The translations under genes were made by a program, and so were the position numbers. A DNA stretch of 64,000 nucleotides from a virus (lineage: Duplodnaviria; Caudoviricetes), in IMG/VR virus record IMGVR_UViG_3300042358_000005, positions 32,001 through 96,000 of that record. One strand, written 5' to 3'. Under the pieces are notes generated by a model. That model did no database searches. It was not told the DNA's origin and worked only from the letters and a program-made list of their open reading frames with translations. Position 1 is the stretch's first letter. Each line of letters begins with the position of its first letter. This document shows, one piece after another, positions 3,001-49,996 of this stretch.

Positions 3001-5264
3001 AATATGCTCCTCTTCCATTCCCTAATCAAACAGCATCACTTATTGATTCTAATAATGTGCCATTAATATCAGAAAACTCTAGATTTGTTATTGGTGGTCC
3101 AAACTATTGTACTGCAAGTGTAGCTGATAAGAAAGACAACTATTGTAACATTCCTGAGAAGGAACAAGACATTAGTGTTATTTCATATTATGCATCATTA
3201 AAAAATATATTTTTAAATCAATGGGGCCAAATGTATTCTTACGAGACTGTTGATACAGGATTCCAAAGAATGTTTAATATAAGTTCTTATTCTGATGATG
3301 TAGTATTTGGTGGAGATACATTTATAAATAAGTTTGCATATAAGACAAAACTTCCTTTCTTCTTGGATAATAGAGTGAACGGATTAGATGATAGTGATAT
3401 ATTCTATGATGAGATTGGCAATGTAGCCTATCCAAAATTCTGGCACTCTGCTAGATCTATTCTATATACATATACGAATATGATAAACATTATATCAATT
3501 AAAGCTCACAACTTTGATTGCTACAATGATCCTGCAGCTATTCCAAAAAGTAGTGATCCTGCAGCTGGTACATATAGAACTTTCTATGATGGATTCTTTT
3601 ATTTATTTGCATATGGTGTACCTAACTTCTATTGTGAATCTAATTATAATGTAGATATACGTCAAGCATTTAATGATAGAGAAGGTGATTTCTGGCCACA
3701 TGTATCAACTGGTATTCCAGATGATTGGGTACAAGAAGAGTTTACATCTATTGCATATGATAATACATATCATTACAATGTAACATTCTCTAAACAGAAC
3801 AAAGAGAATTATTTCTCACATTTACCAGCAGACTGGACATCAGATTTATGTTTTACATATTACCCATTTAGAGTGGTGTATTCTGATCCTCAAGTTAACA
3901 ATGCTGATGTAAGAGTTAATAACTGGTTAAGCTATTCTCCATTATCATTATATGACTTTCCACAGAATTATGGAAACCTTGTATCATTAGATGGTATTCA
4001 GAATAAAGCTGTGTTAGCTAGATTTGAGAACAAGTCATTGTTATATAATAAATTATTAACAATGAATACAAGTAATCCTCAAGCAGCTTATTTAGGTAAC
4101 CCTTCTTTATTTGCAGGAGCACCTCCTATTGATTTTGCTGAAACAGATCTTGGATATGTAGGAAGTCAGAATAAGTTTTTATTAAAGATTCCACAAGGAC
4201 AAGTAACAGTAGATGCTAAAAGAGGACAAATCTTTTTACTTACAAATGAAGGAGCTAATGAGATTTCAGGATTTGGATCTGGTGTAAATAGATTTATGAC
4301 AGACCATTTATCTTTTGAGATATCTAGATATTTCCCAACACATCAAGAAACCATAGATGGTAAAACAATTACTATTCCAGGAGTAGATACAGATAATAAT
4401 TATAATGGTATTGGATTACATGGTGTATATGATAGTAAGTTTGAAAGAGTTATAATTACAAAACTAGATTATATTCCTATTGATAAAGATGTGAAGTATG
4501 ATCCTATAACTAAAGAGTTCTATGTTGAAAAAGTTGTGTATGTTGTAATTCCTACAACAACAAGTACAACAACTATTTATACACCTACAACAAGCACTAC
4601 GTCTAGTTCAACTAGTTCTACTACTACATCAACATCTACCTCTACTAGTACAACAACTAGTACTACAACACTATATCCATTTCCATTAGTTACAATTTGT
4701 GATCAAACTTGGATAGCAAAAAATCTAGATGTTACTCATTATAGAAATGGGGATGTTATTCCACAAGCAACAACACAATCGCAAATGCTTGCATACGGAT
4801 TTTCACAAATAGGATGTTGGTCTTATGCAGCTTACAATACAGCTAATGGTACCGTTTATGGTAAATTATATAATTGGTATGCAGTGAATGATTCAAGAGG
4901 CTTAGCTCCATTAGGATATCATGTACCTACTATTAATGAATGGACAACATTAATTAATTGTTTAGGAGGTAACTCTGTTGCTGGAGGTAAAATAAAAGAA
5001 GTTGGTACAGCACATTGGACTAGCCCTAATACAGGTGCTACAAATGAATCTGGCTTTACAGCTTTAGGAGCAGGATTAAATCCTAGTTCAGGAACAGTAA
5101 CTTATCCACCTTCAAATATAAATTACTTTACATATTTTTGGACAGCTACATCAGTTAATAGTAGTACTGCTAATAATGTATTTTTTAGATTTAGCGATGG
5201 TACAGCAAATCCAACATCTGGTGAAAAAACAACAGCCTATTCTGTTCGTTTAATAAAAAATTAA
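57..5264 (+). CDS. Tail stabilisation/muzzle-type protein (N-terminal part), ending in a Thr/Ser-rich linker and a FISUMP (Fib_succ_major) domain
   Basis: 1735-aa ORF; N-terminus GLNMD…TYALNA…QNEQGN and IRHHKFPD resemble crAss-like tail stabilisation proteins; C-terminus TICDQTWIAKNL…YGKLYNWYAV…GYHVPT…EW…FWT…SVRLIKN matches FISUMP. Confidence 0.8.
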   Translation: MADELDKIKQILGGDQSNIKLEPNFGAIGLNMDQTLNQIKPGTLTYALNAALENFDASSVNYQNEQGNEFCLQFPSGYSLIGTYFINEKNKHIFFIVNSDIGMSQIGYMDNNDCNYVTLVESACLNFDINHPIHKVVHKITNCKTEIYWTDGYNSRRYLDIENIPYTLAYDSDLCDPTYTDQLDCNQLKIQPNFNIPELEITNIYNGGDLTSGTYQFAIQYCDASGNAYTSYYSVTNPTPIADTQLTTAIFDYKVGKSIEVTVNNLDITGLYLYYNIAVIKTINNITSIELVGTYSIENQVDVVTYTGQNNTLINLTALDIFEKYPYYDIAQDLTTAQDVIMWDNLTSIDRINYQEIASKIELLWETYRIPSNENYADELNATNLRGYLRDEVYAFEIVFLLKNGKQTDGFHIPGRTLTYDDLQYPDIPTTNADFIGEPDYVDPTSGVGYSPYWKIYNTASVLGQATGNPIGNATPHEYGEFAYWESIETYPCNIDVWGDLAGQQIRHHKFPDVLVSPIFENPIYALTPGFQPEMQSDAVFPLGVKVDISQIQSLISNSSIAQDQKDNIAGFKIVRGNRNTNKSIVAKGMLRNVATYQRQEQTLYYPNYPYNDLNEDPFLNATTNAYDSLGQSQVWIVQCKETGTYEYTDTVTGKLVSCIPMKAGENYEFCSLTRPKYLTGKACIGPGNYDVIVFDYSICTDAYLLRADSEWTCDNSALTTVKFGTVPFCSFACNLCSLNTCGIFIDKISIGEWPYYEDADGYVGSAEAVCRREEPWPLRLALGELPPYDSRSCINFSRRSPLNDTCGLAKSLPAITSESSRYRQVFNSPDTSFSQPFLGDILKLENVMFGGGKAHFVPVKGNAKYRLLSRQAQEDALDSSFALVVGSGDMTAVFTAYQAYLTIYVNGITRKNYAQSFNSIASYDYSADIGNNITSNGVVGIKQRQLDIQTYLIPGVLNVGDDKNINNYQRESSIYTKTIDKYAPLPFPNQTASLIDSNNVPLISENSRFVIGGPNYCTASVADKKDNYCNIPEKEQDISVISYYASLKNIFLNQWGQMYSYETVDTGFQRMFNISSYSDDVVFGGDTFINKFAYKTKLPFFLDNRVNGLDDSDIFYDEIGNVAYPKFWHSARSILYTYTNMINIISIKAHNFDCYNDPAAIPKSSDPAAGTYRTFYDGFFYLFAYGVPNFYCESNYNVDIRQAFNDREGDFWPHVSTGIPDDWVQEEFTSIAYDNTYHYNVTFSKQNKENYFSHLPADWTSDLCFTYYPFRVVYSDPQVNNADVRVNNWLSYSPLSLYDFPQNYGNLVSLDGIQNKAVLARFENKSLLYNKLLTMNTSNPQAAYLGNPSLFAGAPPIDFAETDLGYVGSQNKFLLKIPQGQVTVDAKRGQIFLLTNEGANEISGFGSGVNRFMTDHLSFEISRYFPTHQETIDGKTITIPGVDTDNNYNGIGLHGVYDSKFERVIITKLDYIPIDKDVKYDPITKEFYVEKVVYVVIPTTTSTTTIYTPTTSTTSSSTSSTTTSTSTSTSTTTSTTTLYPFPLVTICDQTWIAKNLDVTHYRNGDVIPQATTQSQMLAYGFSQIGCWSYAAYNTANGTVYGKLYNWYAVNDSRGLAPLGYHVPTINEWTTLINCLGGNSVAGGKIKEVGTAHWTSPNTGATNESGFTALGAGLNPSSGTVTYPPSNINYFTYFWTATSVNSSTANNVFFRFSDGTANPTSGEKTTAYSVRLIKN

Positions 5265-5268
5265 TATA

Positions 5269-6807
5269 ATGGCTAAGGAAATACAAACACCAGTAGTGTT
5301 ACGAACACAAGTTTATTTAAATGACCCAGACTACTTTTGTAATAAGAGTTGGACTATGTCATATAATTTAAATACTAAGTCATGGATAAGTTATCATAGT
5401 TATATCCCTAATTTCTATATAGGAGAAAACAATTTCTTTTATTCAGGACTTAATGGATGTTGTGATGATGGTGAGAGTGGTGGGTTTCAAGTTATTGCTG
5501 GAGAATTCAATAAAGTGGTACCAACCTCTACATCAACAACAACTTTCTATCCTTCTCCAACTACTACATCTACCACTACAGTGTTAGATTGTATATTAGT
5601 AGGAGCAGCAATTACAACAAGTTGTGAATTAGTAGGTAATGCAATAATCACTGTACCACCTACAACTACTACCACTATATGTCAAAGACCTTCTAATCTA
5701 TTAACTCAATTTATATTTATACAAGGATATACATTAGGAACAGATCCAGAAGTAATATTTATTAGTAGTCTACAAGATGCATGTAATGCATTACCTGCTA
5801 TTGAGTATGTAGGTAGTCCTACTAATACTGACAGTAGTACAGTGAATACATTTAATGGATATGCAAATACTACATCAACAGAATTAGAAATTGGAAACAT
5901 AGTTTATTATGGTGATTCATTAGATTGTACATTTGTTCCTGATGGATGGTATTATGCTTATTCTCCTTTGTTAGATTTTATTTATCAGATTGTAGGAGGA
6001 GTGGTTGTAACAATAACAACATGTGATTGTGGAATAACTACATCTACTACTACAACTATGCCTGTAGTATCAGAGTGTTGTGGAATTTTATTAGCATCAA
6101 CTGATGCTATTAATTATTTCAATAAGTTAACAAATGTAATAACTCCATTAAATGTACCAGGATATACAACTTCTTCAGGTATAGCTATGACAACAGATAA
6201 GTTATGGTCTATTAATGCTGATATAAAAGAATGGAACATATTATTAAATCCATTTTTAGCAACGTTTAATAGAACAATAACTCTTCCTGGAGGATTTACT
6301 ACATCATCTGGAATTGTTGCTTTAAATAATACAGCATTGATTGCTATAGATAGTTCAGCATCTCCACAAGAAGTTGTAGAATTAAACATTACTACATTGA
6401 GTGCATCTGCTGCTATTCAGTTTACGTTACAAGCTAATAGACAAGCTTCTGGTAATCCATTATATATACAGACAGGTCAGATAATTATAATCAATCAAGA
6501 TGTCATATCTTCTGATTATTATATTACACAATACAATTATTCTACAGGAACACTTGAACTTGATATTAATATTGGAACTGTAGAAGGTGTTACATTATTT
6601 GAATGTGATTGTGATATTTATGTTACAGATGCATCTGGACACATGTATGTAATAATTAAAGCATTCCCTTATGTATTATTATATCTAGGATATAGTATTA
6701 ATTTAACATCTATAAGTTCTGCTACTCAAATTGGAAGCTGTATAGTTAGTTCTATCACTGGAAATAGTAATGTACCAACAACAACAACCACTACAACTAT
6801 CCCTTAA
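5269..6807 (+). CDS. Structural protein: short continuation of the stabilisation fold, then Thr-rich linkers, beta-rich domains and a poly-Thr C-tail
   Basis: 512-aa ORF; starts DPDYFCNKSWTMSY…SWISYHSYIPNFY; ends PTTTTTTTIP. Confidence 0.7.
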   Translation: MAKEIQTPVVLRTQVYLNDPDYFCNKSWTMSYNLNTKSWISYHSYIPNFYIGENNFFYSGLNGCCDDGESGGFQVIAGEFNKVVPTSTSTTTFYPSPTTTSTTTVLDCILVGAAITTSCELVGNAIITVPPTTTTTICQRPSNLLTQFIFIQGYTLGTDPEVIFISSLQDACNALPAIEYVGSPTNTDSSTVNTFNGYANTTSTELEIGNIVYYGDSLDCTFVPDGWYYAYSPLLDFIYQIVGGVVVTITTCDCGITTSTTTTMPVVSECCGILLASTDAINYFNKLTNVITPLNVPGYTTSSGIAMTTDKLWSINADIKEWNILLNPFLATFNRTITLPGGFTTSSGIVALNNTALIAIDSSASPQEVVELNITTLSASAAIQFTLQANRQASGNPLYIQTGQIIIINQDVISSDYYITQYNYSTGTLELDINIGTVEGVTLFECDCDIYVTDASGHMYVIIKAFPYVLLYLGYSINLTSISSATQIGSCIVSSITGNSNVPTTTTTTTIP

Positions 6808-6808
6808 C

Positions 6809-7675
6809 ATGACAAAAATAATAACCATAAAATTAGTACAAACTGGACCAACTGCTGGACCATTTAACATTAGTGATCTTTCTGGAAATATTATAGCTGA
6901 GAATGTTTCTAGAAAAACATTAATTGAAGGTATAAGTTATGTAGTAGATGTTAGTGTTGATACAATTATTCTTAAATCTATAGGTGATTGTGAGTTGACT
7001 GTAACTGTACCATTGAAAAGATTTAATATAGTAGAGTATCAGAATATAAAATATACACAATCTGCAACTGGGTGTTTATGGAGACATTTAACAAACATAG
7101 AAAAGTATAATGAATTCTATGGACATATAGAACCATACATCATTGAGTATCCTTTTGCATATCAATTTCAAGATGAAATCCTTCAGAATGTAAAAGATTA
7201 TACTAAGGCATATGAATATCTTCCTATACGTGATGGTGTGTTTAATGATAATGTAAGAATAGAAACAAATAACAAATGGTTTAATAAAGCTGTTTTATAT
7301 AATGGACAACAGAGTTCTGGAGTGCTTGAATTGGTTGCAAAACCTTTACATAATATGAAAGCTTATATGCAATATCCTATTCTTAATGCTGAGAGTAAAA
7401 CTATCACTTATACTAAGAGTGATAACTTCTATCAGTATAATACATTCTGGGCTGCAGAGATAAGTTCTCAGATTCCATTATTTAGCACATCGTGTGAAAG
7501 TCTTTCAATAGATAAGATAGTGAATCAAAAGAATATGGACTATGGTCCTAGAAGTTTCAAGAAAGCAACACTAAGAGCAAAAGAATTAAAGGTGAGACAT
7601 ATACTAGATAATAGTTCAACAACACATCTAGTGTCTCAATTCATAACAGCACCTGCACAAATATCATACAAGTAA
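6809..7675 (+). CDS. C-terminal part of the tail stabilisation protein, with a small N-terminal beta domain
   Basis: ATG at 6809 directly after TAA 6805-6807 (preferred over 6770); LWRH…FYG…PYIIEYP…FNKAVLYNGQQSSG motifs. Confidence 0.7.
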   Translation: MTKIITIKLVQTGPTAGPFNISDLSGNIIAENVSRKTLIEGISYVVDVSVDTIILKSIGDCELTVTVPLKRFNIVEYQNIKYTQSATGCLWRHLTNIEKYNEFYGHIEPYIIEYPFAYQFQDEILQNVKDYTKAYEYLPIRDGVFNDNVRIETNNKWFNKAVLYNGQQSSGVLELVAKPLHNMKAYMQYPILNAESKTITYTKSDNFYQYNTFWAAEISSQIPLFSTSCESLSIDKIVNQKNMDYGPRSFKKATLRAKELKVRHILDNSSTTHLVSQFITAPAQISYK

Positions 7676-27381: not shown

Positions 27382-27382
27382 T

Positions 27383-39507: not shown

Positions 39508-39834
39508 ATGGAAAATTTCACAATTCACATCTTCGGTTACGGAGAAACACAAATCAATTCAAAAGATTTGTCAGTAAAAGTATCAACTGATACATTAACA
39601 ACAGTAACGCCTTTAGTGGCTGGAATATTTGCTAAAAAACCAGCAGATAATCCAACTGTAATTACAGACTTTCACGCTATTAACCTATTTGGTTATAACG
39701 ATGTTCGTTGGACTGCAAAAGATAGCTTTAACGTAAAAGATGATGCTGACTTAAAACCACTTATCGATGCTTTAATTGCTGAATTGCAAAAAGCAAAAGA
39801 CACAACTACTACCACAACTACAATATTGGTATAG
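39508..39834 (+). CDS. Hypothetical protein with a poly-Thr C-tail
   Basis: 108 aa; ends DTTTTTTTILV. Confidence 0.7.
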   Translation: MENFTIHIFGYGETQINSKDLSVKVSTDTLTTVTPLVAGIFAKKPADNPTVITDFHAINLFGYNDVRWTAKDSFNVKDDADLKPLIDALIAELQKAKDTTTTTTTILV

Positions 39835-39918: not shown

Positions 39919-40740
39919 ATGAAGAAAAGAATTTTATTTAACTCCTCTCTTCCTAGAGCAGGATCAACTCTTCTGCAAAATATTATTGCAGATAACCCAG
40001 ACTTTCATTGTACACCTACATCAGGATTCTTAGATCTTATATTAGGTGCAAAGCAAAGTTATAATAACTCATCAGAAGTAAAAGCACAAGATGCTGAACT
40101 AATGAAGAATGCTTTTGTAGGGTTTTGTCATAATGCTATGGATGGATATTTTAATGCTCTAACAGATAAACCTATTGTCTTAGATAAGAATAGAGGTTGG
40201 GGAATACATATTAATCTAGCTAGTGAGTTCATGGTGTCTCCTAAAGTGGTATGTATGATTAGAGATGTAAGAGCTGTATATTCTTCTATGGAGAAAAACT
40301 TTCGTAAGAATCCTACACAAGAGAATCATGTTCAAAATCCTAATCAATTAGTAGGTACTACTCTTCAAAAGAGAATTAACATATGGGCTGATGGACCACC
40401 AGTAGGTATATCTATGGATAGACTAAAAGATGTATTTGATCAGGGAATAGATAAGAAGATATTATTTATTCGTTATGAAGATTTAATGGACTTTCCTGAA
40501 CAAGAGATGAGACGCTTCTATGAGTATATGGAACTTCCATATTATGAAGGACACAACTTTGAAACTGTTACACAGCATACACATGAAAATGATGCTATAC
40601 ATGGAATATATGGTGATCATAAACTAAGAACAAAGTTTGAAAGAAAGCCTGATGATTTTGAAGAAATCTTAGGATTTGAAATATGTCAATCAATTAAAAA
40701 CACTTATCCTTGGTTCTTTACCAAATTTGGATACGTATAA
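39919..40740 (+). CDS. PAPS-dependent sulfotransferase
   Basis: 5'-PSB loop SLPRAGSTLLQNI, DKNR, 3'-PB RDVRAVYSS, RYEDL. Confidence 0.85.
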   Translation: MKKRILFNSSLPRAGSTLLQNIIADNPDFHCTPTSGFLDLILGAKQSYNNSSEVKAQDAELMKNAFVGFCHNAMDGYFNALTDKPIVLDKNRGWGIHINLASEFMVSPKVVCMIRDVRAVYSSMEKNFRKNPTQENHVQNPNQLVGTTLQKRINIWADGPPVGISMDRLKDVFDQGIDKKILFIRYEDLMDFPEQEMRRFYEYMELPYYEGHNFETVTQHTHENDAIHGIYGDHKLRTKFERKPDDFEEILGFEICQSIKNTYPWFFTKFGYV

Positions 40741-40750
40741 ATCAACCAAT

Positions 40751-41620
40751 ATGAATATAATATTTGATATATCAGGAGGCTTAGGAAAGAATGTTCTTTC
40801 TACAGCTGTATTAAAAGCTATTAAGACTAAACATCCTAAAGCAAACGTAATTGTTCTTACATCTTATCCAGATGTGTTTATTGGTAATCCAAATGTAAAC
40901 AAGGTGATAGTTCATGGAACCACATTAGGTCTTTATAAAGATTACATAATGGGTAAGGACACAAAGATTTTTATTACAGATCCTTATACATGCTCTGATT
41001 ACTTAACAGAATCAAAACATCTAATTGAAATATGGTGTAAACTATGTGAGGTGCCATATAATAATGAATTACCTGAGCTTTTTATATCTAAAACAGAAAT
41101 AGAATACTTTGCTCCATTCTATAAATTAGATAAACCTATTCTTGCTATACAACCTAATGGTGGTCCTCAAGATCAACCATTAAAATATAGTTGGACAAGA
41201 GACATTCCTTCTCCAGTAATTAATGATGTAATACAACATTACAAAAAGAAATATACAATTGTACACATTAAACGTGATGATCAACCAATCTACGATGATA
41301 CAGTAGGAGCTCTTGATTCATTTAGAAGTATAGCTGTTCTATTATCATTATCAGAAAGAAGACTTCTTATTGATTCATCAGCTATGCATATTGCTATAGC
41401 TCTAGGACTTCCAAGTGTTGTATGTTGGATAGGAACAAATTCAAAGGTGTTTGGATATGAAATGAATACTAATATAGATGCTAATGCTCCAGACAAAGAA
41501 TTAAACTTAGATCATCCATATTTACAAAGACTTCCATTGTTTGAAGATATCTCTAGATGTCCATATACAGAACTAGGAAGTATATTCAATAGCGAAGACA
41601 TAATTAAAGCATTGAAATAA
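40751..41620 (+). CDS. GT9 (ADP-heptose transferase-like, GT-B fold) glycosyltransferase
   Basis: ATG 40751 preferred; GGLGKNV…VFIGNPNV…IDSSAMHIAIALGLPSVV. Confidence 0.75.
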   Translation: MNIIFDISGGLGKNVLSTAVLKAIKTKHPKANVIVLTSYPDVFIGNPNVNKVIVHGTTLGLYKDYIMGKDTKIFITDPYTCSDYLTESKHLIEIWCKLCEVPYNNELPELFISKTEIEYFAPFYKLDKPILAIQPNGGPQDQPLKYSWTRDIPSPVINDVIQHYKKKYTIVHIKRDDQPIYDDTVGALDSFRSIAVLLSLSERRLLIDSSAMHIAIALGLPSVVCWIGTNSKVFGYEMNTNIDANAPDKELNLDHPYLQRLPLFEDISRCPYTELGSIFNSEDIIKALK

Positions 41621-42060
41621 TGGCAGTATATTGGTTTACAGGACAGCCTTCACATGGTAAAACAGTTTTGGCTAAATTGCTAAAAGAAGAACTACAGAAA
41701 TACGATAGAGTTTTTCATATAGATGGTGATGATCTTAGAGCTCTTACATTAAACAAAGACTTCTCTGAACAAGGAAGAATAGATAATGTCAAAGGTGCAC
41801 AAAAAATAGCACATTATTTACATAATAAAGATTATACAGTGGTAGTTTCACTCATTGCTCCATATAGATGGCAGAGAGAAGAACTAAAAACTATGCTTGG
41901 TGCAGATCTTGTAGAACTATATGTTCATACAACAGAACCAAGAGAAAGAGATCATTTTAGTGTAAAAGATTATGAAGCTCCCTTAGAGAACTTTATAGAT
42001 GTAGACACTACAGATGATACACCAGAAGAATCATTTGCTAAAATTTTAAAACTAATATAA
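41620..42060 (+). CDS. cysC: Adenylyl-sulfate (APS) kinase
   Basis: WFTGQPSHGKT P-loop, IDGDDLR, DFSEQGRIDNV, YEAP. Confidence 0.85.
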   Translation: MAVYWFTGQPSHGKTVLAKLLKEELQKYDRVFHIDGDDLRALTLNKDFSEQGRIDNVKGAQKIAHYLHNKDYTVVVSLIAPYRWQREELKTMLGADLVELYVHTTEPRERDHFSVKDYEAPLENFIDVDTTDDTPEESFAKILKLI

Positions 42061-42491
42061 TGGGATGGAGTAAAAAAGTGCATGTAGAATCTTCTATGCA
42101 ACCAAAAGATTCACAATATGCAATGTTTGTAGGAAGATGGCAACCTTTACATGAAGGTCATGTAAAACTTTTTCAACAAGCAGTATTAGAGGGTAAAAAT
42201 CTTTTAATATGTGTAAGAGATGGAGAGGTTAATGATAAAAACCCTTATACGTCAAAACAAGTAAAAAAAGCAATAAAGGGCATGAGTAAAAATTGGTGGA
42301 CAGAGGATATTTTACCTTTAATAGATAAATTAAAACCAAAAGTAAAAGTAATAATAATACCTGATATTTGCTCGGTTGAATTTGGAAGAGGTGTTGGTTA
42401 TGATATAATAGAGCATATACCGCCTACAGAGATAGCAGAGATATCAGCTACAAAGGTTAGAGAACAAATGCGTAAAGATGGTGAGTTATGA
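42060..42491 (+). CDS. HxGH-class (cytidylyltransferase-like) nucleotidyltransferase, candidate sulfate adenylyltransferase
   Basis: GRWQPLHEGH, GRGVGY, ISATKVR; TAATG-coupled to cysC. Confidence 0.7.
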   Translation: MGWSKKVHVESSMQPKDSQYAMFVGRWQPLHEGHVKLFQQAVLEGKNLLICVRDGEVNDKNPYTSKQVKKAIKGMSKNWWTEDILPLIDKLKPKVKVIIIPDICSVEFGRGVGYDIIEHIPPTEIAEISATKVREQMRKDGEL

Positions 42492-42697
42492 ATGTAGAAA
42501 AGAAAAGACACATAGCAAAAACTGTAAGCTATAGACTAATAAGTACATTGATTGGATTTGCACTTATGTTAGTTATAACAGGATCAGTAAAGATGGGAGC
42601 TGCATTTGGTGTAGCAGAATTACTCTACAAACCTATACAATATTATATACATGAAAGAATATGGTATCGCTGGATTAAATATGGATTAATAAAATAA
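42488..42697 (+). CDS. DUF2061-like small membrane protein
   Basis: RHIAKTVSYRLIST…YYIHERIW; two hydrophobic segments. Confidence 0.75.
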   Translation: MNVEKKRHIAKTVSYRLISTLIGFALMLVITGSVKMGAAFGVAELLYKPIQYYIHERIWYRWIKYGLIK

Positions 42698-42726
42698 AAA
42701 AAACCCTCTATATGAGGGTTTTTATT
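42696..42726. terminator. Bidirectional intrinsic terminator between convergent genes
   Basis: AAAAACCCTC-TATAT-GAGGGTTTTT. Confidence 0.75.
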
Positions 42727-45700
42727 TGGTCTATCACCATTTGTGGTGTTATACTCTTCTGACATTCGAACTGTCTCTCTGTACCTTCATGCACTGGACA
42801 CCAATTATAATTTCCTTTATCAAACTTATATTGTGGATCATTCCAACATCCATGACACACACTTGTATTCACTGGTCTTAAACATTCAAACTCGTGATGC
42901 TTATCAGTGAAGTTAGAGATCATTATCACTTCTTTACCAAGGCCCCAAGCTAACCAGCTAAGCCCACTAGATAGTCCTATAAAGAACTTGCTTTCATCAA
43001 TAACACGCATAGTGTTAGTCATTGAGGTGTCAAGTAATCCTTGACAGTTGTCAAATGGATTCTTTTCTAATGATGTATTAATCACTTTATATCCTTGCTC
43101 ATGCAAGTAGTTAATCACCTCTTGCCAAGCTTCTCTTGTCCAGAACTTACATCCTGCTGTACTATTAGTTGCAATAGTTATATACATACCTTGCTCATGT
43201 GATTTTTTATATGCAAGTCTTGGTTTGATTTCTTTATAAGGAAGACCTAGAATATTTGTAGCTGTCTGCTGTAATGGTATAGTGTTAGGAAGAACAGGTT
43301 CTTTGTTCTCATTATAGAACCAACCAATTTTGTACATAGCATATATATTATTGACAGCTGTTCCTGGAGCTACAAACTCTAGCATTGGATATTCTTTTTC
43401 AAACAAGAAGTTTTTGAATGTACTAACAATCACTTCACAGTTGTGTAAACATCTAAACTCTTCTACATATGGTATCCAAGCTATTGTATCTCCTAAAGAA
43501 GAACTATCAAAAGCTATGTACACTCTTCTATTCTCTAGCTGTACGAACTTATCGTATACTTTCTCTCCATCTTTATACACAACGGTTCTCCACTTAGTAT
43601 AATACTCTCTAGCAAGTTTTATCCAGTGGTTACATTTGATTACATCGCTATGAACTAATTGCTCACCATCATAAAACTCTACACGAAAGTCACTAGTAGA
43701 TGTACCAGTTATCTCTAAGAATGGTTGTCCAACAAAGTTTTGTGTTATATTATAATCTTTTATCTCATTTTTGTGTGGAATAACAGACATTACATTTTTA
43801 TACAGGTTTGCATGAATTTTTCCGAAAACTTCAGACGTATTATCTGTAGGAACATCATATTTCATTAGTAGTCCCAGTATTGGAGAGTTTAAATCTACAC
43901 TCTCTGCTATATAATTAGTATACATATCTTTATATTGTGGAAGATTTTTAGCTATTATAGGTAGGCCATAACTTACAGCTTCTTTAAGTACAATAGGATT
44001 ACATTCCCATGTGCTGTTAAACATAAACACATCAGCAGCTAACATAAAATGATGAATATCATTTCGTTCTCCCCATATCTTTACATTAAAAGGTAGATCT
44101 TTCATAAGAGGTTCCCAGTAGTCTTTGAAGTTACCAGCTTGGTTACCTATGAAGTGAAACATCACCTTAGGATATTTACGAGCAATAGCTAATCCTTCAG
44201 CTTGATTCTTACCAGGAGTCCAAAGTCCTACATTTATAACATGTCTACCACCAAGGCTCATACCTAAAAGTTCTTTATACTGTCTCTTTAATGTCTTAGA
44301 TACTGGTTCTTTGTCTATAGGATATTCAATCACTTCTTTATATCCATCAAGACTGGCAAATGTATCTACATGATAGGGAGTACAGAATGCATATGCATCT
44401 GGTGTAAACATCTTAGTCTCTGGTACAAAAGATACATCATGACATGTTTCTACTATTCTATACTTTCTACTAGGAGAATATAGTTTAGTGATCATCTCTC
44501 TATCCATTCTCTCAGACATTTCATCTATATGGATAACATCTGGTTGCCATCCATCTATTATATCAAACAGTTTCATTTTATCTTCCCATAGTGTATGGAA
44601 GTGTGGATCTACAATATCCATGATTTGATTTCTTTGTACAACATAATCAATACCATGACATTGATATTCTACAACAAAAATCTCTATATCTGTATTAGCT
44701 TGTAATGCCTCTATTCTTTTAAGAAGAAACTGAGGCATACCACCTGTAGATAGATGAGGTGCAAGGAACATCACTCTCATAGGTTTAGACATCTTAGACA
44801 TCATTTTAGACATTGCTATAGGATCTTTCTCTCCATGTAAGAAGAATAAGTCTTGCTCACTAACTGGTAACTTAAACCATGATTCTATATACTTGCCCCA
44901 ATTGTCTTCTTCATATATCTTATCTAACTTATCAAGGCCAGCATTAGTATATATATAAGGAAGACCTTCTAAGAATCTATGTTTCCATAATAATACATTC
45001 ACTATTGTCTCTTCGTGATAAGGAGCATAATATTGAGGATTCTTTAACACCTCTGGGTGATTACACATCCAACTCCATTCATCTAAAAATGGTATACTGT
45101 TATGACCAGCTACAAAGTAACCAGTTTGTCTATACTTATCTCTAATGTTTTGATGTACACCAAACAACTGGCATGCTGGATATTCTAATGTCTTAACTAG
45201 TTCAGTGCTTCCTCTTCCATTAATAAATAGATAGTCATATATACCCTCTGTGAAATACGGAAATTCCGAATTTATAGGATGATAGTTGAATATTCTATCT
45301 ACATACTTAGTAGCTATAGAATCAGAATCTACATAACATACTCTCTTAGCAAAGTTCTCAAGAGCATGTTTAACTACAAGAGGTCTTTGTATTAATAGAT
45401 TGTATATTCTAGAATCAGTTCTATCTATATAAGTGTTCTTAGGTAAGTCTTCAATATCAGATTGCCAATATATAGTCTTTGCTCCAGGAACCTCACTGTG
45501 ACAATCTAACATGTATACTAAAACAGGAATCTTACTCATCTTGTTAAGACTTTCTACAGCAGCACATACAACACTGTAATAAGATGCATTTGCATATAAT
45601 ACGTACATTTTCTCCTCTTTTATACGTGTATGCGTATAATAGCCATAATATTGATTTCTATATATACAACTAAGTTCAGGATATCTTTCACCCATTATAG

Positions 45701-46121
45701 GATGTGTAAGGTCTGGTTGGTGATGAGTTTCATGTATATTCCCCTCATGTTCTCCTTGTTCCATTTCATATGGAATAGCCACCATACATTCTTTAGTGGA
45801 TACAATGTTTCTGATTAACTTTACAGCATCATCTGTAGGAATATGTTCTAACACATCTCCCATGATTATAAAGTCATAATCACTAGTATCAAATGTGGTG
45901 ATATCTCCTACATAAACATTATCATATTTAGCTCTAAGTCCATACTTTTCTATGTACGGTTCATAGATTTCTACAGCATCAATTCTATATCCTAATGAAC
46001 GTAATAATTCTGAATAAGTCCCTATTCCAGGGCCTACATCTAGTATTCTTTTACTAGTTGGAACGTTTTGAATGAACCATTCTTTCACTTCTTCTTTGAA
46101 GTAGGTAAAACTGTAAGGCAT
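42708..46121 (-). CDS. Multidomain enzyme: class I SAM methyltransferase + DxD glycosyltransferase-like domain + GT4 + TibC/Aah-like O-heptosyltransferase domain
   Basis: ILDVGPGIG…GDVLEH; CYVDSD; HLSTGGMPQ…KNQ…ECNPIVLKEA; SLGDTIAW…FIGLSSGLSWLAW…CHGCWND…WCP…CQKSIT. Confidence 0.85.
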   Translation of the reverse strand: MPYSFTYFKEEVKEWFIQNVPTSKRILDVGPGIGTYSELLRSLGYRIDAVEIYEPYIEKYGLRAKYDNVYVGDITTFDTSDYDFIIMGDVLEHIPTDDAVKLIRNIVSTKECMVAIPYEMEQGEHEGNIHETHHQPDLTHPIMGERYPELSCIYRNQYYGYYTHTRIKEEKMYVLYANASYYSVVCAAVESLNKMSKIPVLVYMLDCHSEVPGAKTIYWQSDIEDLPKNTYIDRTDSRIYNLLIQRPLVVKHALENFAKRVCYVDSDSIATKYVDRIFNYHPINSEFPYFTEGIYDYLFINGRGSTELVKTLEYPACQLFGVHQNIRDKYRQTGYFVAGHNSIPFLDEWSWMCNHPEVLKNPQYYAPYHEETIVNVLLWKHRFLEGLPYIYTNAGLDKLDKIYEEDNWGKYIESWFKLPVSEQDLFFLHGEKDPIAMSKMMSKMSKPMRVMFLAPHLSTGGMPQFLLKRIEALQANTDIEIFVVEYQCHGIDYVVQRNQIMDIVDPHFHTLWEDKMKLFDIIDGWQPDVIHIDEMSERMDREMITKLYSPSRKYRIVETCHDVSFVPETKMFTPDAYAFCTPYHVDTFASLDGYKEVIEYPIDKEPVSKTLKRQYKELLGMSLGGRHVINVGLWTPGKNQAEGLAIARKYPKVMFHFIGNQAGNFKDYWEPLMKDLPFNVKIWGERNDIHHFMLAADVFMFNSTWECNPIVLKEAVSYGLPIIAKNLPQYKDMYTNYIAESVDLNSPILGLLMKYDVPTDNTSEVFGKIHANLYKNVMSVIPHKNEIKDYNITQNFVGQPFLEITGTSTSDFRVEFYDGEQLVHSDVIKCNHWIKLAREYYTKWRTVVYKDGEKVYDKFVQLENRRVYIAFDSSSLGDTIAWIPYVEEFRCLHNCEVIVSTFKNFLFEKEYPMLEFVAPGTAVNNIYAMYKIGWFYNENKEPVLPNTIPLQQTATNILGLPYKEIKPRLAYKKSHEQGMYITIATNSTAGCKFWTREAWQEVINYLHEQGYKVINTSLEKNPFDNCQGLLDTSMTNTMRVIDESKFFIGLSSGLSWLAWGLGKEVIMISNFTDKHHEFECLRPVNTSVCHGCWNDPQYKFDKGNYNWCPVHEGTERQFECQKSITPQMVIDQIKTLI

Positions 46122-46169: not shown

Positions 46170-46232
46170 GCTATATTATGATGAAAATCTATTTCATACC
46201 CTTCGTTATTCCAAATATAAATTTTATATTTG
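46170..46232 (+). promoter_or_regulatory. Lysis-operon promoter: GCTATATTAT box plus -7 TATATTTG
   Basis: Same box and spacing as 32130-32192. Confidence 0.6.
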
Positions 46233-46319
46233 CTATATATAAAATGGTACAATCATTGCATCATTGCACTTACCATCTTAAAGTGTATAACTATGCTATA
46301 ATAACACCCACACTCCCTT

Positions 46320-46640
46320 ATGGAAAACGCATTTGAACAACAAGTAGAAAAAGAATTAAAAAGCATGGATCAACGACTATATGATCTAGAGGAGAAGATG
46401 ACTTCTATAGACACTAAACTAACACAAGTTGTAGACGCTATCTTAGGTAATGCACTAACAAAAACAGGGGGATTTATTGCTGACTTAACTGAGCTAAAGG
46501 CCAAGATAAAAGATTTAGAAGATAAGATACAGAAACAAGAAGAGTTCAAAAAGAAATTTACTTGGACCGTAGGTATCATATTAGGTATTGGTGTACTACT
46601 TCAATACCTATCTACACTTTATAGAAATATAACAACATGA
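46320..46640 (+). CDS. Coiled-coil protein with a C-terminal TM segment (lysis-associated, XhlA/holin-like)
   Basis: Heptad pattern then FTWTVGIILGIGVLLQYL; first gene of the lysis cluster. Confidence 0.55.
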   Translation: MENAFEQQVEKELKSMDQRLYDLEEKMTSIDTKLTQVVDAILGNALTKTGGFIADLTELKAKIKDLEDKIQKQEEFKKKFTWTVGIILGIGVLLQYLSTLYRNITT

Positions 46641-46840
46641 GTACAAAAGAGAAGGTTGATATTTTTTTAAACAAATGGGTAAGCAGAAAGCTTACAGTGT
46701 TTGCTGTAGGTTCTGTTGGCCTTTTCTCTGGAAAATTAACATCATCTGATTGGGTTATAATTGCAGCAACATATATTGCTATTGAAGGAGCAACAACTAT
46801 TGTAGAAAAATTAATGAAAGCTAGAGGAGGTATATCATGA
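46637..46840 (+). CDS. Putative holin
   Basis: 67 aa, two hydrophobic segments, WVSRKL motif, upstream of the lysin. Confidence 0.6.
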   Translation: MSTKEKVDIFLNKWVSRKLTVFAVGSVGLFSGKLTSSDWVIIAATYIAIEGATTIVEKLMKARGGIS

Positions 46841-47232
46841 TATTAGAACTTAAAAGAAAGATATTCACAGATGATTCCACAATAGGAGAAATATCTATTG
46901 ATGGTGTATTTATATGTTATACATTAGAGGATAAAGTGAGAGAGACTAAGATAAAGAACATAACAGCTATCCCTTATGGAAAATATGAATTAGCAGTTAC
47001 ATTCTCTAATCGTTTTAAACAGTACATGCCTCTATTACTTAATGTACCAGGATTTGAAGGTGTACGTATACACAGTGGTAATAAATCTACTGAAACAGAA
47101 GGATGTATTCTTGTAGGTGGTACTAGATCATTAAACTTTATTGGCAAGTCTAGAGTGACATATAAAGCTTTATTTGATAAGATAAAGAGTGCAAAAAAAA
47201 CAGAGAAGGTCTTTTTAAACATTACGCAATAA
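46837..47232 (+). CDS. DUF5675-family putative endolysin
   Basis: STIG…CYTLED…AIPYGKY…VPGFEGVRIHSGN…TEGCILVG. Confidence 0.8.
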   Translation: MILELKRKIFTDDSTIGEISIDGVFICYTLEDKVRETKIKNITAIPYGKYELAVTFSNRFKQYMPLLLNVPGFEGVRIHSGNKSTETEGCILVGGTRSLNFIGKSRVTYKALFDKIKSAKKTEKVFLNITQ

Positions 47233-47546
47233 TGATACAATATTTAAAAGATCAGTACTTGGCGGTGATCATCACCGTTATCTGGCTATTCTTTACACTA
47301 CATACTCAACAAAAGACTGCTCTTCTATTAGAACAAACTAAGAAATTAGAAGCTAAAATATTAGTTCTTGAAGAAAAAGATCATGAGTCTAGTATAATTA
47401 TTGATAGCTTATCTAGAGTGGATACACTCATAGTTAATAGAATCAAAATCATCAAACAAAAAGAATATGTACAAATTAGGATTATTGATAGTTTGCCTGT
47501 TAGTGGGCTTCAAAAGTACTTCACAGATCGTTACTCAGAAAAATGA
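47232..47546 (+). CDS. Putative inner-membrane spanin-like protein
   Basis: N-terminal TM then coiled coil, after the lysin. Confidence 0.5.
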   Translation: MIQYLKDQYLAVIITVIWLFFTLHTQQKTALLLEQTKKLEAKILVLEEKDHESSIIIDSLSRVDTLIVNRIKIIKQKEYVQIRIIDSLPVSGLQKYFTDRYSEK

Positions 47547-47943
47547 TTCTATCGTTACCCTTAGTGAAACTGTTTCTAGGAAGGTTGTTTCTGATCTTGT
47601 ACGTTATGATTTTGCTAAGAATATTATCAAAGAGCAAGAGATAAGAATAAAGAACTACCAGAACAAAGAGATTGAGTTTAAGAACAAACTAGATATAAAA
47701 GATTCCATCATATTCTATCAGAAGAGTATTATTGATATTCATAAAGAGATTATCAAGAGTAAAAAACCTTTAGAGATACATGGATATGTAGGTGTACAAT
47801 CAATTCAATTCAAATTGGTAGAACCTATATTATATACAAACTTAATGTTTGAGTTTCCTAAGTTCAGTATAGGAGCTCAATACTACGTACAACCTAACAA
47901 TCCTAGTGGATATGGGATTGTTCTAGAATATAACTTATTTTAA
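47467..47943 (+). CDS. Putative secreted/outer spanin-like protein overlapping the previous gene
   Basis: Signal-peptide-like start, coiled coil, beta-strand C-terminus ending YNLF. Confidence 0.45.
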   Translation: MYKLGLLIVCLLVGFKSTSQIVTQKNDSIVTLSETVSRKVVSDLVRYDFAKNIIKEQEIRIKNYQNKEIEFKNKLDIKDSIIFYQKSIIDIHKEIIKSKKPLEIHGYVGVQSIQFKLVEPILYTNLMFEFPKFSIGAQYYVQPNNPSGYGIVLEYNLF

Positions 47944-47944
47944 C

Positions 47945-48079
47945 ATGGCAAAACAAACCAACTCTTCAGAAAAAGAAGTAAAAATTAAAGTGAGCAGACC
48001 TGGTGTGCATGCTAAAGCTCAGACATCTAAACTTAAATCTTCTAAGAATTACAAGAAGCTTTATAATGGACAAGGATAA
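47945..48079 (+). CDS. Small basic protein (44 aa; not in ORF track)
   Basis: MAKQTNSSEKEVKIKVSRPGVHAKAQTSKLKSSKNYKKLYNGQG; fits the gap exactly. Confidence 0.7.
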   Translation: MAKQTNSSEKEVKIKVSRPGVHAKAQTSKLKSSKNYKKLYNGQG

Positions 48080-48080
48080 A

Positions 48081-48230
48081 ATGGATTGGGAATTAACATT
48101 CGCTCTCTATTGGCCTCACGATAGATTTGCTATAGGATGGGATATCCTACATGCTGATGAAACATATAATTACAGCACATACATATTGTATTTAGGAATA
48201 CTTACAATAACATTAGACATAAATAATTAA
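48081..48230 (+). CDS. Small hypothetical protein
   Basis: MDWELTFALYWPHDRFAIGW…; ATG 48081 directly after the previous stop. Confidence 0.6.
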   Translation: MDWELTFALYWPHDRFAIGWDILHADETYNYSTYILYLGILTITLDINN

Positions 48231-48304
48231 TCTAGTTAGACTTGCTCTAACTATTTTTGTTATTTTATTTTGGTGAAAATCAGATACTAATGGTGAAAAA
48301 AACT

Positions 48305-48312
48305 TATTTTTG
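48305..48312 (+). promoter_or_regulatory. -7 box TATTTTTG for the poly-Thr peptide/glycosyltransferase unit
   Basis: TAnnTTTG match, preceded by two TGGTGAAAA repeats. Confidence 0.5.
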
Positions 48313-48338
48313 TATATTAATTAATAAAATTTAAAATC

Positions 48339-48506
48339 ATGGCAATACCATCAAGAGGAATAGGCTGGAGTACTACAGATAACCTATTATGGCAGATATC
48401 TAAGCAATTAGAACGTCTTATTAGTGTTACAGGTGCTGGAAACACGTACACTACAACTACTACTACTACTGTAGCACCTACTACCACTACCACTACAACA
48501 GTGTAA
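48339..48506 (+). CDS. Poly-Thr-tailed micro-protein (55 aa; not in ORF track)
   Basis: MAIPSRGIGWSTTDNLLWQISKQLERLISVTGAGNTYTTTTTTTVAPTTTTTTTV. Confidence 0.8.
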   Translation: MAIPSRGIGWSTTDNLLWQISKQLERLISVTGAGNTYTTTTTTTVAPTTTTTTTV

Positions 48507-48532
48507 AGAATTAAAACAAAACCAACTACATT

Positions 48533-49549
48533 ATGAAAGATTTAAAATTTATCCAGGCTTGTCCTAGTGATATTTATTACACATGGCAAGTGCACATGTG
48601 GTTAGAGAGCTTAAGAGAGATAGGTCATTCTGACAAAGCTATATCAGTAATCTTCACTCCTAAAGGGAGAGAGAATAAAGACAAGTGGAAACAGATAGAA
48701 GATCTATATCCAGAAGCAGAGTTTCATTACTATGCTGATGAGGATAATTTAAATCGATTGTTAGGAATTTATATTCCTGTACTTAGACCATATGTTCTTT
48801 GGAAACATTTTAAAGCACATCCAGAACTAAGTGAAAAAGCTATCTTCTATTGTGACTCTGATATTCTTTTCATGAAGGATTTCAATCTAGATAAGTTCTT
48901 AGAAGATGATGTTAACTACTTATCTGATACAAACAGCTATATCAATGCTAAATATTTTGATAGCAAGGTGCACCAAGTGTTACCAGAGAAGCTAGAAGAA
49001 TATAAGAATAGGGATATCCTTGCAGAGATTGCAAGTGTGGTAGGAATAAGTAGAGAAGTGTGCGAAGCTAATAATGATCATTCAGGAGGAGCTCAATATC
49101 TATTAAAAAATGTAGATGGTGACTTCTGGAGTAAGGTGATGAATGATTGTATTCTTATAAGAAGTTATTTACAAACTGTGAATAGAGAATTCTTTAAAGA
49201 TGAGAACTCAGGGTTTCAAAGTTGGTGTGCAGATATGTGGGCTGTCTTATGGAACATCTGGTTAAGAGATCAAGAAACAAAAGTGGTGCCTGAATTAGCA
49301 TTTGCTTGGGCTACAGATCCTCTTATTAAATTAGATACACATACAATCTTTCATAATGCAGGAATAGTTTCTGAGACAGGAAATGGATACCCAGCTTTCT
49401 ACAAAGGAAAGTATCACATGGGAACTGATCCAACAAAAGATCCTAACTTAGATATGATTCTTAATGATGAGAATTCAAAAAAATATTGCACATGGTTCTA
49501 TGCAAATAAATTAAATGAACTAAAACAAAAACATAACCTAAACTATTAA
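48533..49549 (+). CDS. GT-A fold glycosyltransferase resembling GT95/GT96 protein O-glycosyltransferases
   Basis: YYTWQ, YIPVLRPYVL, FYCDSDILF (DxD), WCADMWA, IFH in the order seen in plant HPAT/SGT enzymes; assignment by eye. Confidence 0.65.
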   Translation: MKDLKFIQACPSDIYYTWQVHMWLESLREIGHSDKAISVIFTPKGRENKDKWKQIEDLYPEAEFHYYADEDNLNRLLGIYIPVLRPYVLWKHFKAHPELSEKAIFYCDSDILFMKDFNLDKFLEDDVNYLSDTNSYINAKYFDSKVHQVLPEKLEEYKNRDILAEIASVVGISREVCEANNDHSGGAQYLLKNVDGDFWSKVMNDCILIRSYLQTVNREFFKDENSGFQSWCADMWAVLWNIWLRDQETKVVPELAFAWATDPLIKLDTHTIFHNAGIVSETGNGYPAFYKGKYHMGTDPTKDPNLDMILNDENSKKYCTWFYANKLNELKQKHNLNY

Positions 49550-49565
49550 CCCTAAATTTTAAACA

Positions 49566-49772
49566 ATGGGAAGCATTAATTCAAGACCTTTAAAGGCTTT
49601 TGTTAGATTCGATGGATCTGGCAGAATAGTTGCAGGAAGTTTGATTCTAAGAAAGAACAAACCTAAAGTTGGTAAATGGAAAGAGATTCCAGCATATGAG
49701 TGCTGTAATCCTACAACCACTTCAACCACCACTGCTGTATTAACAACAACAACAACCACCTCACCTAGATAA
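49566..49772 (+). CDS. Poly-Thr-tailed micro-protein, paralogue 1
   Basis: LKAFVRFDGSGRIV…KPKVGKWKEI…ECCNPTTTSTTTAVLTTTTTTSPR. Confidence 0.8.
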   Translation: MGSINSRPLKAFVRFDGSGRIVAGSLILRKNKPKVGKWKEIPAYECCNPTTTSTTTAVLTTTTTTSPR

Positions 49773-49774
49773 TC

Positions 49775-49996
49775 ATGGCAAGAAGTAATAACAATAATAA
49801 GCTTAAAGCTTTTGTACGTTTTGATGGTTCAGGACGTGTAGTATCAAGTAGTTTAATTGTACAAGCATTTAAACCGAAGGTTGGTAATTGGAAAGAAATA
49901 GATGCTAAGGAATGTTGTAATTATGTTCCAACAACAACAACTACCACTACAGTAGCACCAACAACTACAACCACCACTACAGTTACTCCAGGGTAA
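49775..49996 (+). CDS. Poly-Thr-tailed micro-protein, paralogue 2
   Basis: LKAFVRFDGSGRVV…KPKVGNWKEI…ECCNYVPTTTTTTTVAPTTTTTTTVTPG. Confidence 0.8.
   Translation: MARSNNNNKLKAFVRFDGSGRVVSSSLIVQAFKPKVGNWKEIDAKECCNYVPTTTTTTTVAPTTTTTTTVTPG

Follow-up and report, generated by a model that had tools for sequence, protein, structure and literature searches.

Why should a bacteriophage end or interrupt its late proteins with runs of threonine, and why should the gene of a predicted glycosyltransferase (GT) stand in the midst of them? The question is raised by a 64,000-nucleotide stretch of viral DNA (Duplodnaviria; Caudoviricetes), called the window in the following, which represents bases 32001-96000 of a single 118,934-bp contig with 33% G+C (IMG/VR record IMGVR_UViG_3300042358_000005). 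Comparison of this locus with its relatives and with unrelated phages makes it fairly likely that the phage encodes a cytoplasmic O-glycosylation system of its own, in which a short portable poly-Thr unit, typically seven residues long (T7) and often present in repeats of T7-x-A-P, would serve as the acceptor. The particle of this phage is probably sugar-coated.

Threonine tracts of the late proteins and the enzyme beside them

An initial annotation, prepared from the letters of the window alone, had listed Thr tracts across putative virion proteins. All of them are real and lie in + strand reading frames, and five open reading frames (ORFs) end in a Thr tail as described (5269-6807, 39508-39834, 48339-48506, 49566-49772 and 49775-49996). 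The tract at 4551-4671 is present as well, as a mixed Ser/Thr linker ahead of a Fib_succ_major domain rather than as pure Thr. The genes concerned are the following (aa, amino acids).

57-5264, + strand: muzzle part 1, 1735 aa; distant match to the crassvirus muzzle protein (Pfam crAss_MUZ, 5e-31) and Fib_succ_major (Pfam, 8e-34)
5269-6807, + strand: muzzle part 2, 512 aa; residues 16-64 correspond to phrog_15100 positions 1540-1587
6809-7675, + strand: muzzle part 3, the C-terminal piece; phrog_15100 positions 1588-1780
39508-39834, + strand: 108-aa protein with the C-terminus ...KDTTTTTTTILV, i.e. KD-T7-ILV
48339-48506, + strand: 55-aa head-plus-tag protein; helical-looking head MAIPSRxIGW..NLLWQISKQLE, then T7-VAP-T7-V
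48533-49549, + strand: core glycosyltransferase (predicted), 338 aa; phrog_4417, GT-A fold
49566-49772, + strand: 68-aa protein; head KAFVRFDGSGR...KPKVG.W.EI...ECCN, Thr tail ending ...TTTTTTSPR
49775-49996, + strand: 73-aa paralogue of 49566 with the end T7-VAP-T7-VTPG

Across the whole genome, the called genes contain 25 runs of at least five Thr residues (27 if the 55-aa ORF is included), against 0.71 expected from within-protein shuffles (maximum of 3 in 200 shuffles), and 13 of the 25 are exactly T7. Apart from one Asp run, no comparable runs of any other amino acid occur in the genome. The + strand carries the structural and late genes and the − strand the replication genes, among them RecA at 57977-59062. 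As the initial annotation had noted, the runs respect this division: all of them lie in + strand late genes (24.6k aa) and none in the 13.7k aa encoded on the − strand. Its codon argument holds too, since the runs are written in a mixture of ACA (68), ACT (67) and ACC (23) that varies within single runs, in support of selection at the protein level. The 18-residue peptide T7-VAP-T7-V is indeed common to 48339 and 49775, and its two copies differ at 11 of 54 bases, all of them synonymous, and thus do not stem from a recent DNA copy. Slippage, chance and recent duplication as the source of the tracts are ruled out by the shuffles, the mixed codons and the synonymous differences. The data support the conclusion that the Thr tracts are selected at the protein level and restricted to late, virion-type proteins.

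The tracts occur both at protein ends and between domains. In muzzle part 1, the Ser/Thr linker connects the body of the protein to the Fib_succ_major domain (residues 1545-1734, ~4689-5258). Part 2 consists of a short conserved muzzle segment followed by Thr-linked Cys-rich inserts and a T7 tail (6778-6798; end ...VPTTTTTTTIP). Part 3 starts one base past the stop codon of part 2 and is free of Thr tracts. The muzzle protein is thereby split into three tightly packed ORFs along which the phrog_15100 profile continues from one to the next, and the extra modules sit exactly at the two breaks, the Fib_succ_major domain behind its Ser/Thr linker at one and the Thr-linked Cys-rich modules at the other. 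The 108-aa protein has homologues with the same tail in four relatives (L009, L016, L029 and L047). Directly in front of it lies one of two collagen-repeat proteins of the window (32603-39502, 2299 aa with 12 collagen stretches; the other, 50716-51948, has 410 aa), in which G-x-T triplets raise the Thr content to 14%. The region densest in Thr runs was outside the view of the initial annotation: just upstream of the window, genome positions 20389-28467 encode a 388-aa structural protein with a Thr tail and four fibre-like proteins with up to nine Thr or Ser/Thr linkers between small Cys-rich modules.

The GT gene is one of the late genes on the + strand; lysis genes stand on one side of it and the gene of a collagen-like fibre on the other. 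Its 338-aa product is a member of phrog_4417 (E 1.8e-55; residues 4-320 against profile positions 1-286 of 293). A search of a large protein collection with the GT profile yielded close relatives only, 2889 in number and none of them named, and the same profile gave a chance match only against PDB sequences. An AlphaFold model built on an alignment of 25 relatives reached a pLDDT of 89.8. Foldseek placed glycogenin, the catalytic domain of UGGT, WbbM and XXYLT1 (xyloside xylosyltransferase) at the top (E ~1e-6), among more than 265 PDB matches at E≤0.001, with TM-scores of 0.4-0.6 for the best ones. The triplet D108-S109-D110, a DxD motif, is invariant across 25 sequences of 65-91% identity. 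From the modelled fold we confidently predict that the protein is a GT-A glycosyltransferase. Its likeness to glycogenin (GT8) and UGGT (GT24), both of which act on protein-linked acceptors, consists of the GT-A fold and the DxD motif, and with TM-scores of 0.4-0.6, 10-13% identity and no Pfam GT8 match it indicates a fold class, not a family. Neither the GT nor the tagged proteins have a signal peptide, and thus any modification would take place in the cytoplasm.

Enzyme and tract in close relatives and in other phages

IMG/VR holds at least 295 relatives of the 48533 gene, from which we fetched 80 loci (65-91% identity), 29 of them with full flanks. The initial annotation had suggested testing whether the tails co-occur with this GT, and in 77 of the 80 relatives the gene is flanked by Thr-tailed small proteins. 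Homologues of 49566/49775 lie directly behind it in 77 of 80 loci and in all 29 with full flanks, and a member of the 48339 family is found about 30 bases upstream in most loci. Both small families follow one plan: a conserved head of 35-50 residues is succeeded by T7 or T7-xAP-T7 and then by nothing or by a variable C-terminal domain of up to 450 residues. Most members of either family are composed of the head and the Thr tail with nothing behind, which argues that the tract itself has a function. Moreover, run length is quantised. Of 358 runs in the + strand ORFs of the 80 loci, 199 have seven residues, 18 have six and 32 have eight. The usual flanks are VAP, AAP or PAP, and the repeat unit is T7-[V/A/I]-A-P.

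The same heads also reveal a second use of the tract. In different relatives the 48339-type head carries a tail only, a Cys-rich module or, after a linker, a Fib_succ_major domain. The Cys-rich module on the small proteins of relatives shares 55% identity with part of the 735-aa fibre protein (residues 584-647), their Fib_succ_major domains are 44-57% identical to the C-terminal domain of muzzle part 1, and residues 304-438 of muzzle part 2 resemble a module on the small anchor protein of relative L053. Linker-borne modules have hence been swapped among small anchor proteins (L013, L015, L019, L039 and L053), the fibre protein (genome 24747-26954) and the muzzle (window 4689-5258 and 5269-6807). 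The occurrence of the same modules behind linkers on different carriers indicates that the Thr tracts are the joints of a plug-and-play display system.

Beyond this clade, homologues of the GT with 23-35% identity are present in 77 GenBank phage records (E≤1e-5), a base rate of 77/50,697 or 0.15%. The hosts are Enterococcus, Lactobacillus, Staphylococcus, Lactococcus, Clostridium and Arcanobacterium, to which Chryseobacterium phage MA9V-3 has to be added, and the carriers span Firmicutes, Actinomycetota and Bacteroidota. We sampled ten lineages: Enterococcus phages phiFL2A and nattely, Lactobacillus phages Semele, iLp84 and SAC12B, Lactococcus phage 1706, Clostridium phage phiCTP1, Staphylococcus phage SA2, Arcanobacterium phage TPWB06 and MA9V-3. 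All ten have Thr-rich tails on capsid, tail-tube or adjacent proteins near the GT, often with the xAP-T7 unit. In eight of them the GT gene lies directly behind the major tail protein gene, as annotated or judged by position; in SAC12B and MA9V-3 it follows another Thr-tailed protein. For instance, the phiFL2A capsid protein ends with ...T5-KP-T5-KP-T7-QG and its tail tube protein with 21 Ser/Thr residues. Phage 1706 has the tails T9-HHD and T10-HHD, iLp84 and Semele share VAP-T7, SAC12B carries (TTV[K/A]P)n, and a unit of the T7-[V/A/I]-A-P type is found in Lactobacillus and Clostridium phages.

Phages without the GT behave differently. Four of them with 50-60% identical tail-tube orthologues (Streptococcus phages Javan47 and 315.6, Pediococcus phage cIP1 and Lactobacillus phage phiJL-1) have no Thr run in 6-12 kb, and their tail-tube proteins end at the conserved C-terminus. 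Leptolyngbya phage Lbo-JY46, the single GenBank phage with a recognisable relative of the capsid protein encoded on our contig (26% identity), has neither the GT nor any T6 pattern in 125 kb. MA9V-3 possesses the GT and 15 T6 patterns, all on the coding strand. The initial annotation had stated that equally frequent tails in relatives lacking these GTs would speak against its proposal; we found tails in none of the five GT-less controls and in all ten GT carriers. A reverse test gave a related picture. When IMG/VR records of at least 30 kb were chosen solely for a T7-x-A-P-T7 DNA pattern, 20 of 39 contained the GT, as did six of the seven that were at least 90% complete. In ten cases the match is a distant homologue from a different type of phage, one of them with a genome of 343 kb.

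A probable cytoplasmic glyco-tag and competing explanations

According to the reading that we favour, the GT-A enzyme encoded at 48533-49549 would, late in infection and before or during assembly, move a sugar from a nucleotide sugar to the hydroxyl groups of the tract threonines. These tracts come in two forms, as C-terminal tails on the small head-plus-tail proteins, a muzzle piece and the 108-aa and 388-aa proteins, and as linkers that separate small display modules, Cys-rich or carbohydrate-binding, within the muzzle and fibre proteins. In this particular phage, the genes at 39919-46121 might extend or diversify the glycan. The outcome would be an extended, hydrophilic and protease-resistant glycan brush on tail-end and fibre proteins. 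The data show the tracts and the selection on them, the folds and families of the enzymes, the synteny and the co-occurrence across lineages; within this scheme we infer Thr as the acceptor, the identity of the sugar, its sulfation or methylation, the virion membership of the small proteins and the benefit to the phage.

Several observations weigh against this reading. The 338-aa protein has no Pfam match (E≤0.01, Glyco_transf_8 included) and no NCBIfam match, and its identity comes from the fold alone. The small tagged proteins are putative virion components only, and the major capsid protein of this phage has no Thr tail, unlike that of the Firmicutes phages. We found no glycan, mass-shift or expression data in the literature for this phage or any other phrog_4417 carrier. 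The comparison of ten carriers with five controls is small and uncorrected for kinship. Within the phage clade itself every contig has both GT and tails, so that the clade offers no case of co-loss; a capsid-based IMG/VR search provided no within-clade control either, as it retrieved near-identical relatives only (at least 598 contigs, at least 94% identity), all from the GT-bearing clade. In the reverse test, 19 of the 39 motif-bearing viral records were without the GT; most of these are fragments, and one is a 192-kb record rated complete. Finally, the T7-x-A-P-T7 pattern is common in bacterial genomes, mostly of high-GC Actinomycetota, and the GT was nearby in only one of 120 8-kb loci (from Weissella). 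Thus the motif is a linker and acceptor of a general type that does not by itself imply the enzyme, and the tie between the two is confined to phages. The bacterial loci derive from Acidimicrobiia, Ilumatobacteraceae, Rhodococcus and Mycobacterium, among others, have a median G+C content of 0.63 and presumably encode Thr/Pro linkers of secreted proteins.

A bolder version of the favoured reading can be put forward only tentatively and is rather doubtful as a whole. Here, T7-x-A-P would be a self-sufficient portable glyco-tag read by one GT-A family (phrog_4417) in at least three phyla, any protein bearing it would be glycosylated in the cytoplasm, and the length of seven would reflect the binding register of the enzyme. 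In the lake phage, a TibC-type protein O-heptosyltransferase, the first one borne by a phage, would then elaborate the primary glycan, which would also be methylated and sulfated.

The alternative that fares best, though we regard it as unlikely, takes the tracts for unmodified stiff or flexible spacers and recombination joints and lets the GT act on host envelope polysaccharide or lipid-linked sugars. Many tracts do lie between Cys-rich modules, the modules behind linkers have been shuffled between small anchor proteins, fibre and muzzle, and the motif is a common linker in cellular secreted proteins that lack the GT. A spacer, however, does not account for the conserved tracts of the two small families, most members of which keep the tail with nothing behind it, nor for a run length fixed at seven. 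In the Firmicutes phages the tails form the very ends of capsid and tail-tube proteins, with no further module to be joined, and tails are seen only where the GT is present.

Somewhat less probable still is that the tracts are glycosylated but that the initiating enzyme is the TibC-like domain encoded in the island at 39919-46121, another island GT or a host enzyme, with the 338-aa protein extending the glycan or serving another substrate. TibC and Aah are known cytoplasmic Ser/Thr O-glycosyltransferases, and the phage does encode such a domain. However, roughly every second close relative with tails lacks the TibC-like gene, and just four GenBank phage records have it, whereas the 338-aa family tracks the tails across phyla. 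As to the host, general O-glycosylation in Bacteroidota takes place outside the cytoplasm, on exported proteins with a D-(S/T)-(A/I/L/V/M/T) motif; this sequon fits only one of the tails (KDTT at 39802), and the tagged proteins lack signal peptides. Modification of phage DNA or of the host surface, e.g. for superinfection exclusion, with the adjacency to the tags a coincidence, is very improbable: phage GTs that glycosylate DNA bases are well known and a GT2-like gene lies among the early genes, but the GT is placed in late structural modules of many unrelated phages, right behind tagged tail-tube genes, is absent from orthologous phages without tails, and has no hydroxymethylase or similar DNA-modification partner that we could see in the window.

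The favoured reading is also supported by the TibC/Aah-type domain of the accessory island, which belongs to a genuine family of cytoplasmic Ser/Thr protein O-glycosyltransferases. To our knowledge, virion glycosylation has so far been shown by experiment only in mycobacteriophages, and we know of no bacterial virus for which a sulfated glycan has been described. Among demonstrated systems, the mycobacteriophages come closest; their GTs modify the capsid and tail-tube proteins of the same phage, and the glycans coat the particle (Che8, Corndog and Myrna; Freeman et al. 2023, Cell Host Microbe 31:1216, as reported in PMC12363180 and PMC12582341). Under the favoured reading, the lake phage would have in common with them phage-encoded cytoplasmic GTs directed at the phage's own structural proteins. 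As in the mycobacteriophages, a GT lies in or beside the structural genes and Ser/Thr-rich extensions are found on structural proteins, though on different carriers. The mycobacteriophages differ in host phylum and phage lineage, and their acceptors are capsid and tail-tube proteins, whereas the acceptor candidate of the lake phage is a near-pure T7 unit on the muzzle, the fibre and small dedicated proteins. Mycobacteriophages are missing from the 77 GenBank records in which a GT homologue was found (E≤1e-5), so that the GT family appears to be a different one.

Mucin-type domains and the O-glycosylated Thr/Pro-rich linkers in glycoside hydrolases that bacteria and fungi secrete share the composition of the tracts and presumably their extended, protease-resistant character. 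These linkers are glycosylated outside the cytoplasm by membrane enzymes, whereas phage proteins stay in the cytoplasm until lysis, and only the phage tags have a set length of seven. With the Firmicutes phages that carry phrog_4417, the lake phage has the enzyme family, the xAP-T7 style of the tag and the close gene neighbourhood in common. Those are small siphoviruses with tags at the ends of major capsid and tail-tube proteins; the lake phage, in contrast, has a 119-kb crAss-like genome of the podovirus type, uses the tags also as inter-module linkers, flanks its GT with small head-plus-tag proteins and has, in addition, a large island of accessory glycan genes. What the lake phage contributes anew is the crAss-like carrier, a tag that joins shuffled display modules, the head-plus-tag proteins on both sides of the GT, the quantisation of length at seven, and an accessory island with TibC-type and sulfation genes. 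In the literature we found no description of a phage module composed of GT and poly-Thr.

If the favoured reading is true, sugar-coated virions would cease to be a speciality of mycobacteriophages. They would turn out to be widespread among phages, down to the abundant crAss-like phages of fresh water, and could be recognised by a simple sequence signature and an enzyme family of their own. This would bear on the resistance of particles to proteases and grazing, on their sticking to or avoiding polysaccharide matrices, on the immune recognition of therapeutic Enterococcus, Staphylococcus and Lactobacillus phages, and on the annotation of phage proteins. A short tag for cytoplasmic O-glycosylation would also be a tool for glycoprotein production in bacteria, and the island offers a testable case of a protein O-heptosyltransferase together with a sulfotransferase in a phage.

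The accessory island and the genome around it

Between the collagen-repeat gene and the lysis genes, the window contains further genes for glycan synthesis and sulfation, and another GT-like gene stands among the early genes (PAPS, 3′-phosphoadenosine 5′-phosphosulfate; APS, adenosine 5′-phosphosulfate; SAM, S-adenosylmethionine; NMN, nicotinamide mononucleotide).

39919-40740, + strand: PAPS-type sulfotransferase; Pfam Sulfotransfer_3, 1.5e-15, 58.5 bits against a cut-off of 27
40751-41620, + strand: GT9-like (heptosyltransferase-like) 289-aa protein, a lead only, from the ESM Atlas and a weak profile match
41620-42060, + strand: APS kinase family protein, 146 aa; Pfam APS_kinase, 5.8e-18, 65.8 bits against a cut-off of 21.1
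42060-42491, + strand: nucleotidyltransferase, 143 aa; motifs HxGH and ISxTxxR, models of the NMN, heptose-phosphate and pantetheine-phosphate adenylyltransferase type
42708-46121, − strand: 1137-aa fusion protein; SAM methyltransferase (residues ~20-110), DSD middle domain (~170-450), GT4-type GT-B domain (~490-740) and TibC/Aah-type domain (827-1135)
54943-55719, − strand: GT2-like protein; weak NCBIfam matches to HpsN, PglI and WcaA, E ~7e-6

The initial annotation had counted about seven GT domains in the window, which proves to be an upper bound: three are firm, two are moderate and two are leads only. It had also named a sulfotransferase and a methyltransferase. Both are present, the former above the Sulfotransfer_3 cut-off and with the two PAPS-binding motifs (PRAGST; RDVRAVYSS, i.e. 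R..R....S), the latter as the SAM methyltransferase domain of the 1137-aa protein. As regards genes for PAPS synthesis, an APS kinase is encoded, although its 146 aa score below the NCBIfam equivalog cut-offs, and we did not find an ATP sulfurylase in the window. The only candidate, 42060-42491, was rejected on account of its HxGH and ISxTxxR motifs of the NMN adenylyltransferase/HldC type and the models that it fits. Thus, the phage could at most turn APS of the host into PAPS. The nucleotidyltransferase may supply a sugar nucleotide, e.g. ADP-heptose. In relatives it is found together with the APS kinase, and the islands of three relatives include PfkB kinases. For the 289-aa protein, the nearest viral clusters in the ESM Atlas score 0.98-0.99, and in one of them 46% of the members bear the label Glyco_transf_9 (the Atlas record for 40751-41620 begins at residue 26 of the longer ORF), and a match to heptosyltransferase III is weak (E 0.0097).

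Residues 827-1135 of the fusion protein match TIGR04414 (6.5e-77, 259 bits against an equivalog cut-off of 200) and the TibC structures 4RAP and 4RB4 in the PDB (E 6e-50). In the alignment to 4RB4, the iron-finger pattern CxGCW...WCP.H...FEC is conserved, and the phage protein has LGD where the deposited chain has LGA; the Asp of the LGD motif we take to be the catalytic residue of the TibC family. The C-terminal 310 residues thus share with TibC/Aah the family score, the iron-finger cysteines and the LGD aspartate. The known enzymes are cytoplasmic Ser/Thr protein O-glycosyltransferases of bacterial autotransporters, and the domain in the lake phage differs in being fused to a GT4 domain, a methyltransferase and one further domain. 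No protein of the autotransporter family (AIDA/TibA-type substrate) was found among the window proteins scanned, so that the acceptor of the TibC-like domain must be a different one. The middle domain (~170-450) gave a pLDDT of 36 in a single-sequence fold, hhalign of the 338-aa GT profile against it aligned the DSD stretch only (probability 0.4), and the ESM Atlas provides a weak GT8 or nucleotide-diphospho-sugar lead (0.85). The four GenBank phage records with a TibC-like domain, at 34-44% identity, are the huge phages LR756501, LR756503 and LR756504 and Microcystis phage Mel-JY01 (PP395634), in which it is hidden under a gene annotated as an FkbM methyltransferase.

The initial annotation had further suggested testing whether the tails co-occur with the 39919-46121 genes, which turn out to be accessory. 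Among the 29 relatives with full flanks, the tails are present in all, the sulfotransferase in 5, the APS kinase in 6, the nucleotidyltransferase in 7 and the large GT fusion in 15; thus the tag is independent of the island. Among 136 proteins encoded in the islands of 28 relatives, Pfam recognised 14 GT1/GT4 and 13 GT9 proteins and 3 PfkB sugar kinases, along with methyltransferases, epimerases and dehydratases, which characterises the locus as a variable glycan-building island. The idea of a portable acceptor tag has gained from the linkage to the GT in relatives and unrelated phages, and that of a sulfated or methylated coat has lost ground with the accessory nature of the island; such a coat can be proposed for this phage only. 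Nothing favours the suggested mimicry of glycans foraged by gut Bacteroidota, given that the habitat is lake water. The GT2-like gene on the early-gene strand is kept in 24 of the 29 full-flank relatives. Next to it, at the start of the early block, lies a 216-aa ORF (54296-54946, − strand) that is found in only one or two relatives.

We classify the phage as crAss-like from two distant matches, the muzzle protein described above and a major capsid protein of the crassvirus type (Crass_capsid, 1.4e-27), whose gene lies a short way upstream of the window, as does that of a P22-like portal protein (Pfam). The lineage probably infects Bacteroidota, the likely host being a lake bacterium of the Flavobacterium type. 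DNA of the contig is matched in lake-water metagenomes of several studies, and the at least 598 IMG/VR contigs with a near-identical capsid gene show that this crAss-like lineage is abundant in fresh water. When 24 kb of the window were compared with GenBank phages by megablast, no match was obtained.

Behind the muzzle gene follow two giant ORFs, 14395-27381 (4328 aa) and 27383-32119 (1578 aa), with zero Pfam matches, which may, from this position, encode the crAss-type virion RNA polymerase or cargo proteins. The stretch 52493-54269 encodes six small, very Lys-rich proteins, several of them beginning with MATIKKAQ, that are kept in most relatives and might be internal proteins that bind DNA. 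A lysis-type cassette (46320-47943) immediately precedes the GT module. It encodes a coiled-coil protein of 106 aa with a membrane anchor, a membrane protein of 67 aa, a DUF5675 protein (2e-33) and two more small membrane or secreted proteins. Relatives have genes of the M15 peptidase, lysozyme or chitinase class in its place.

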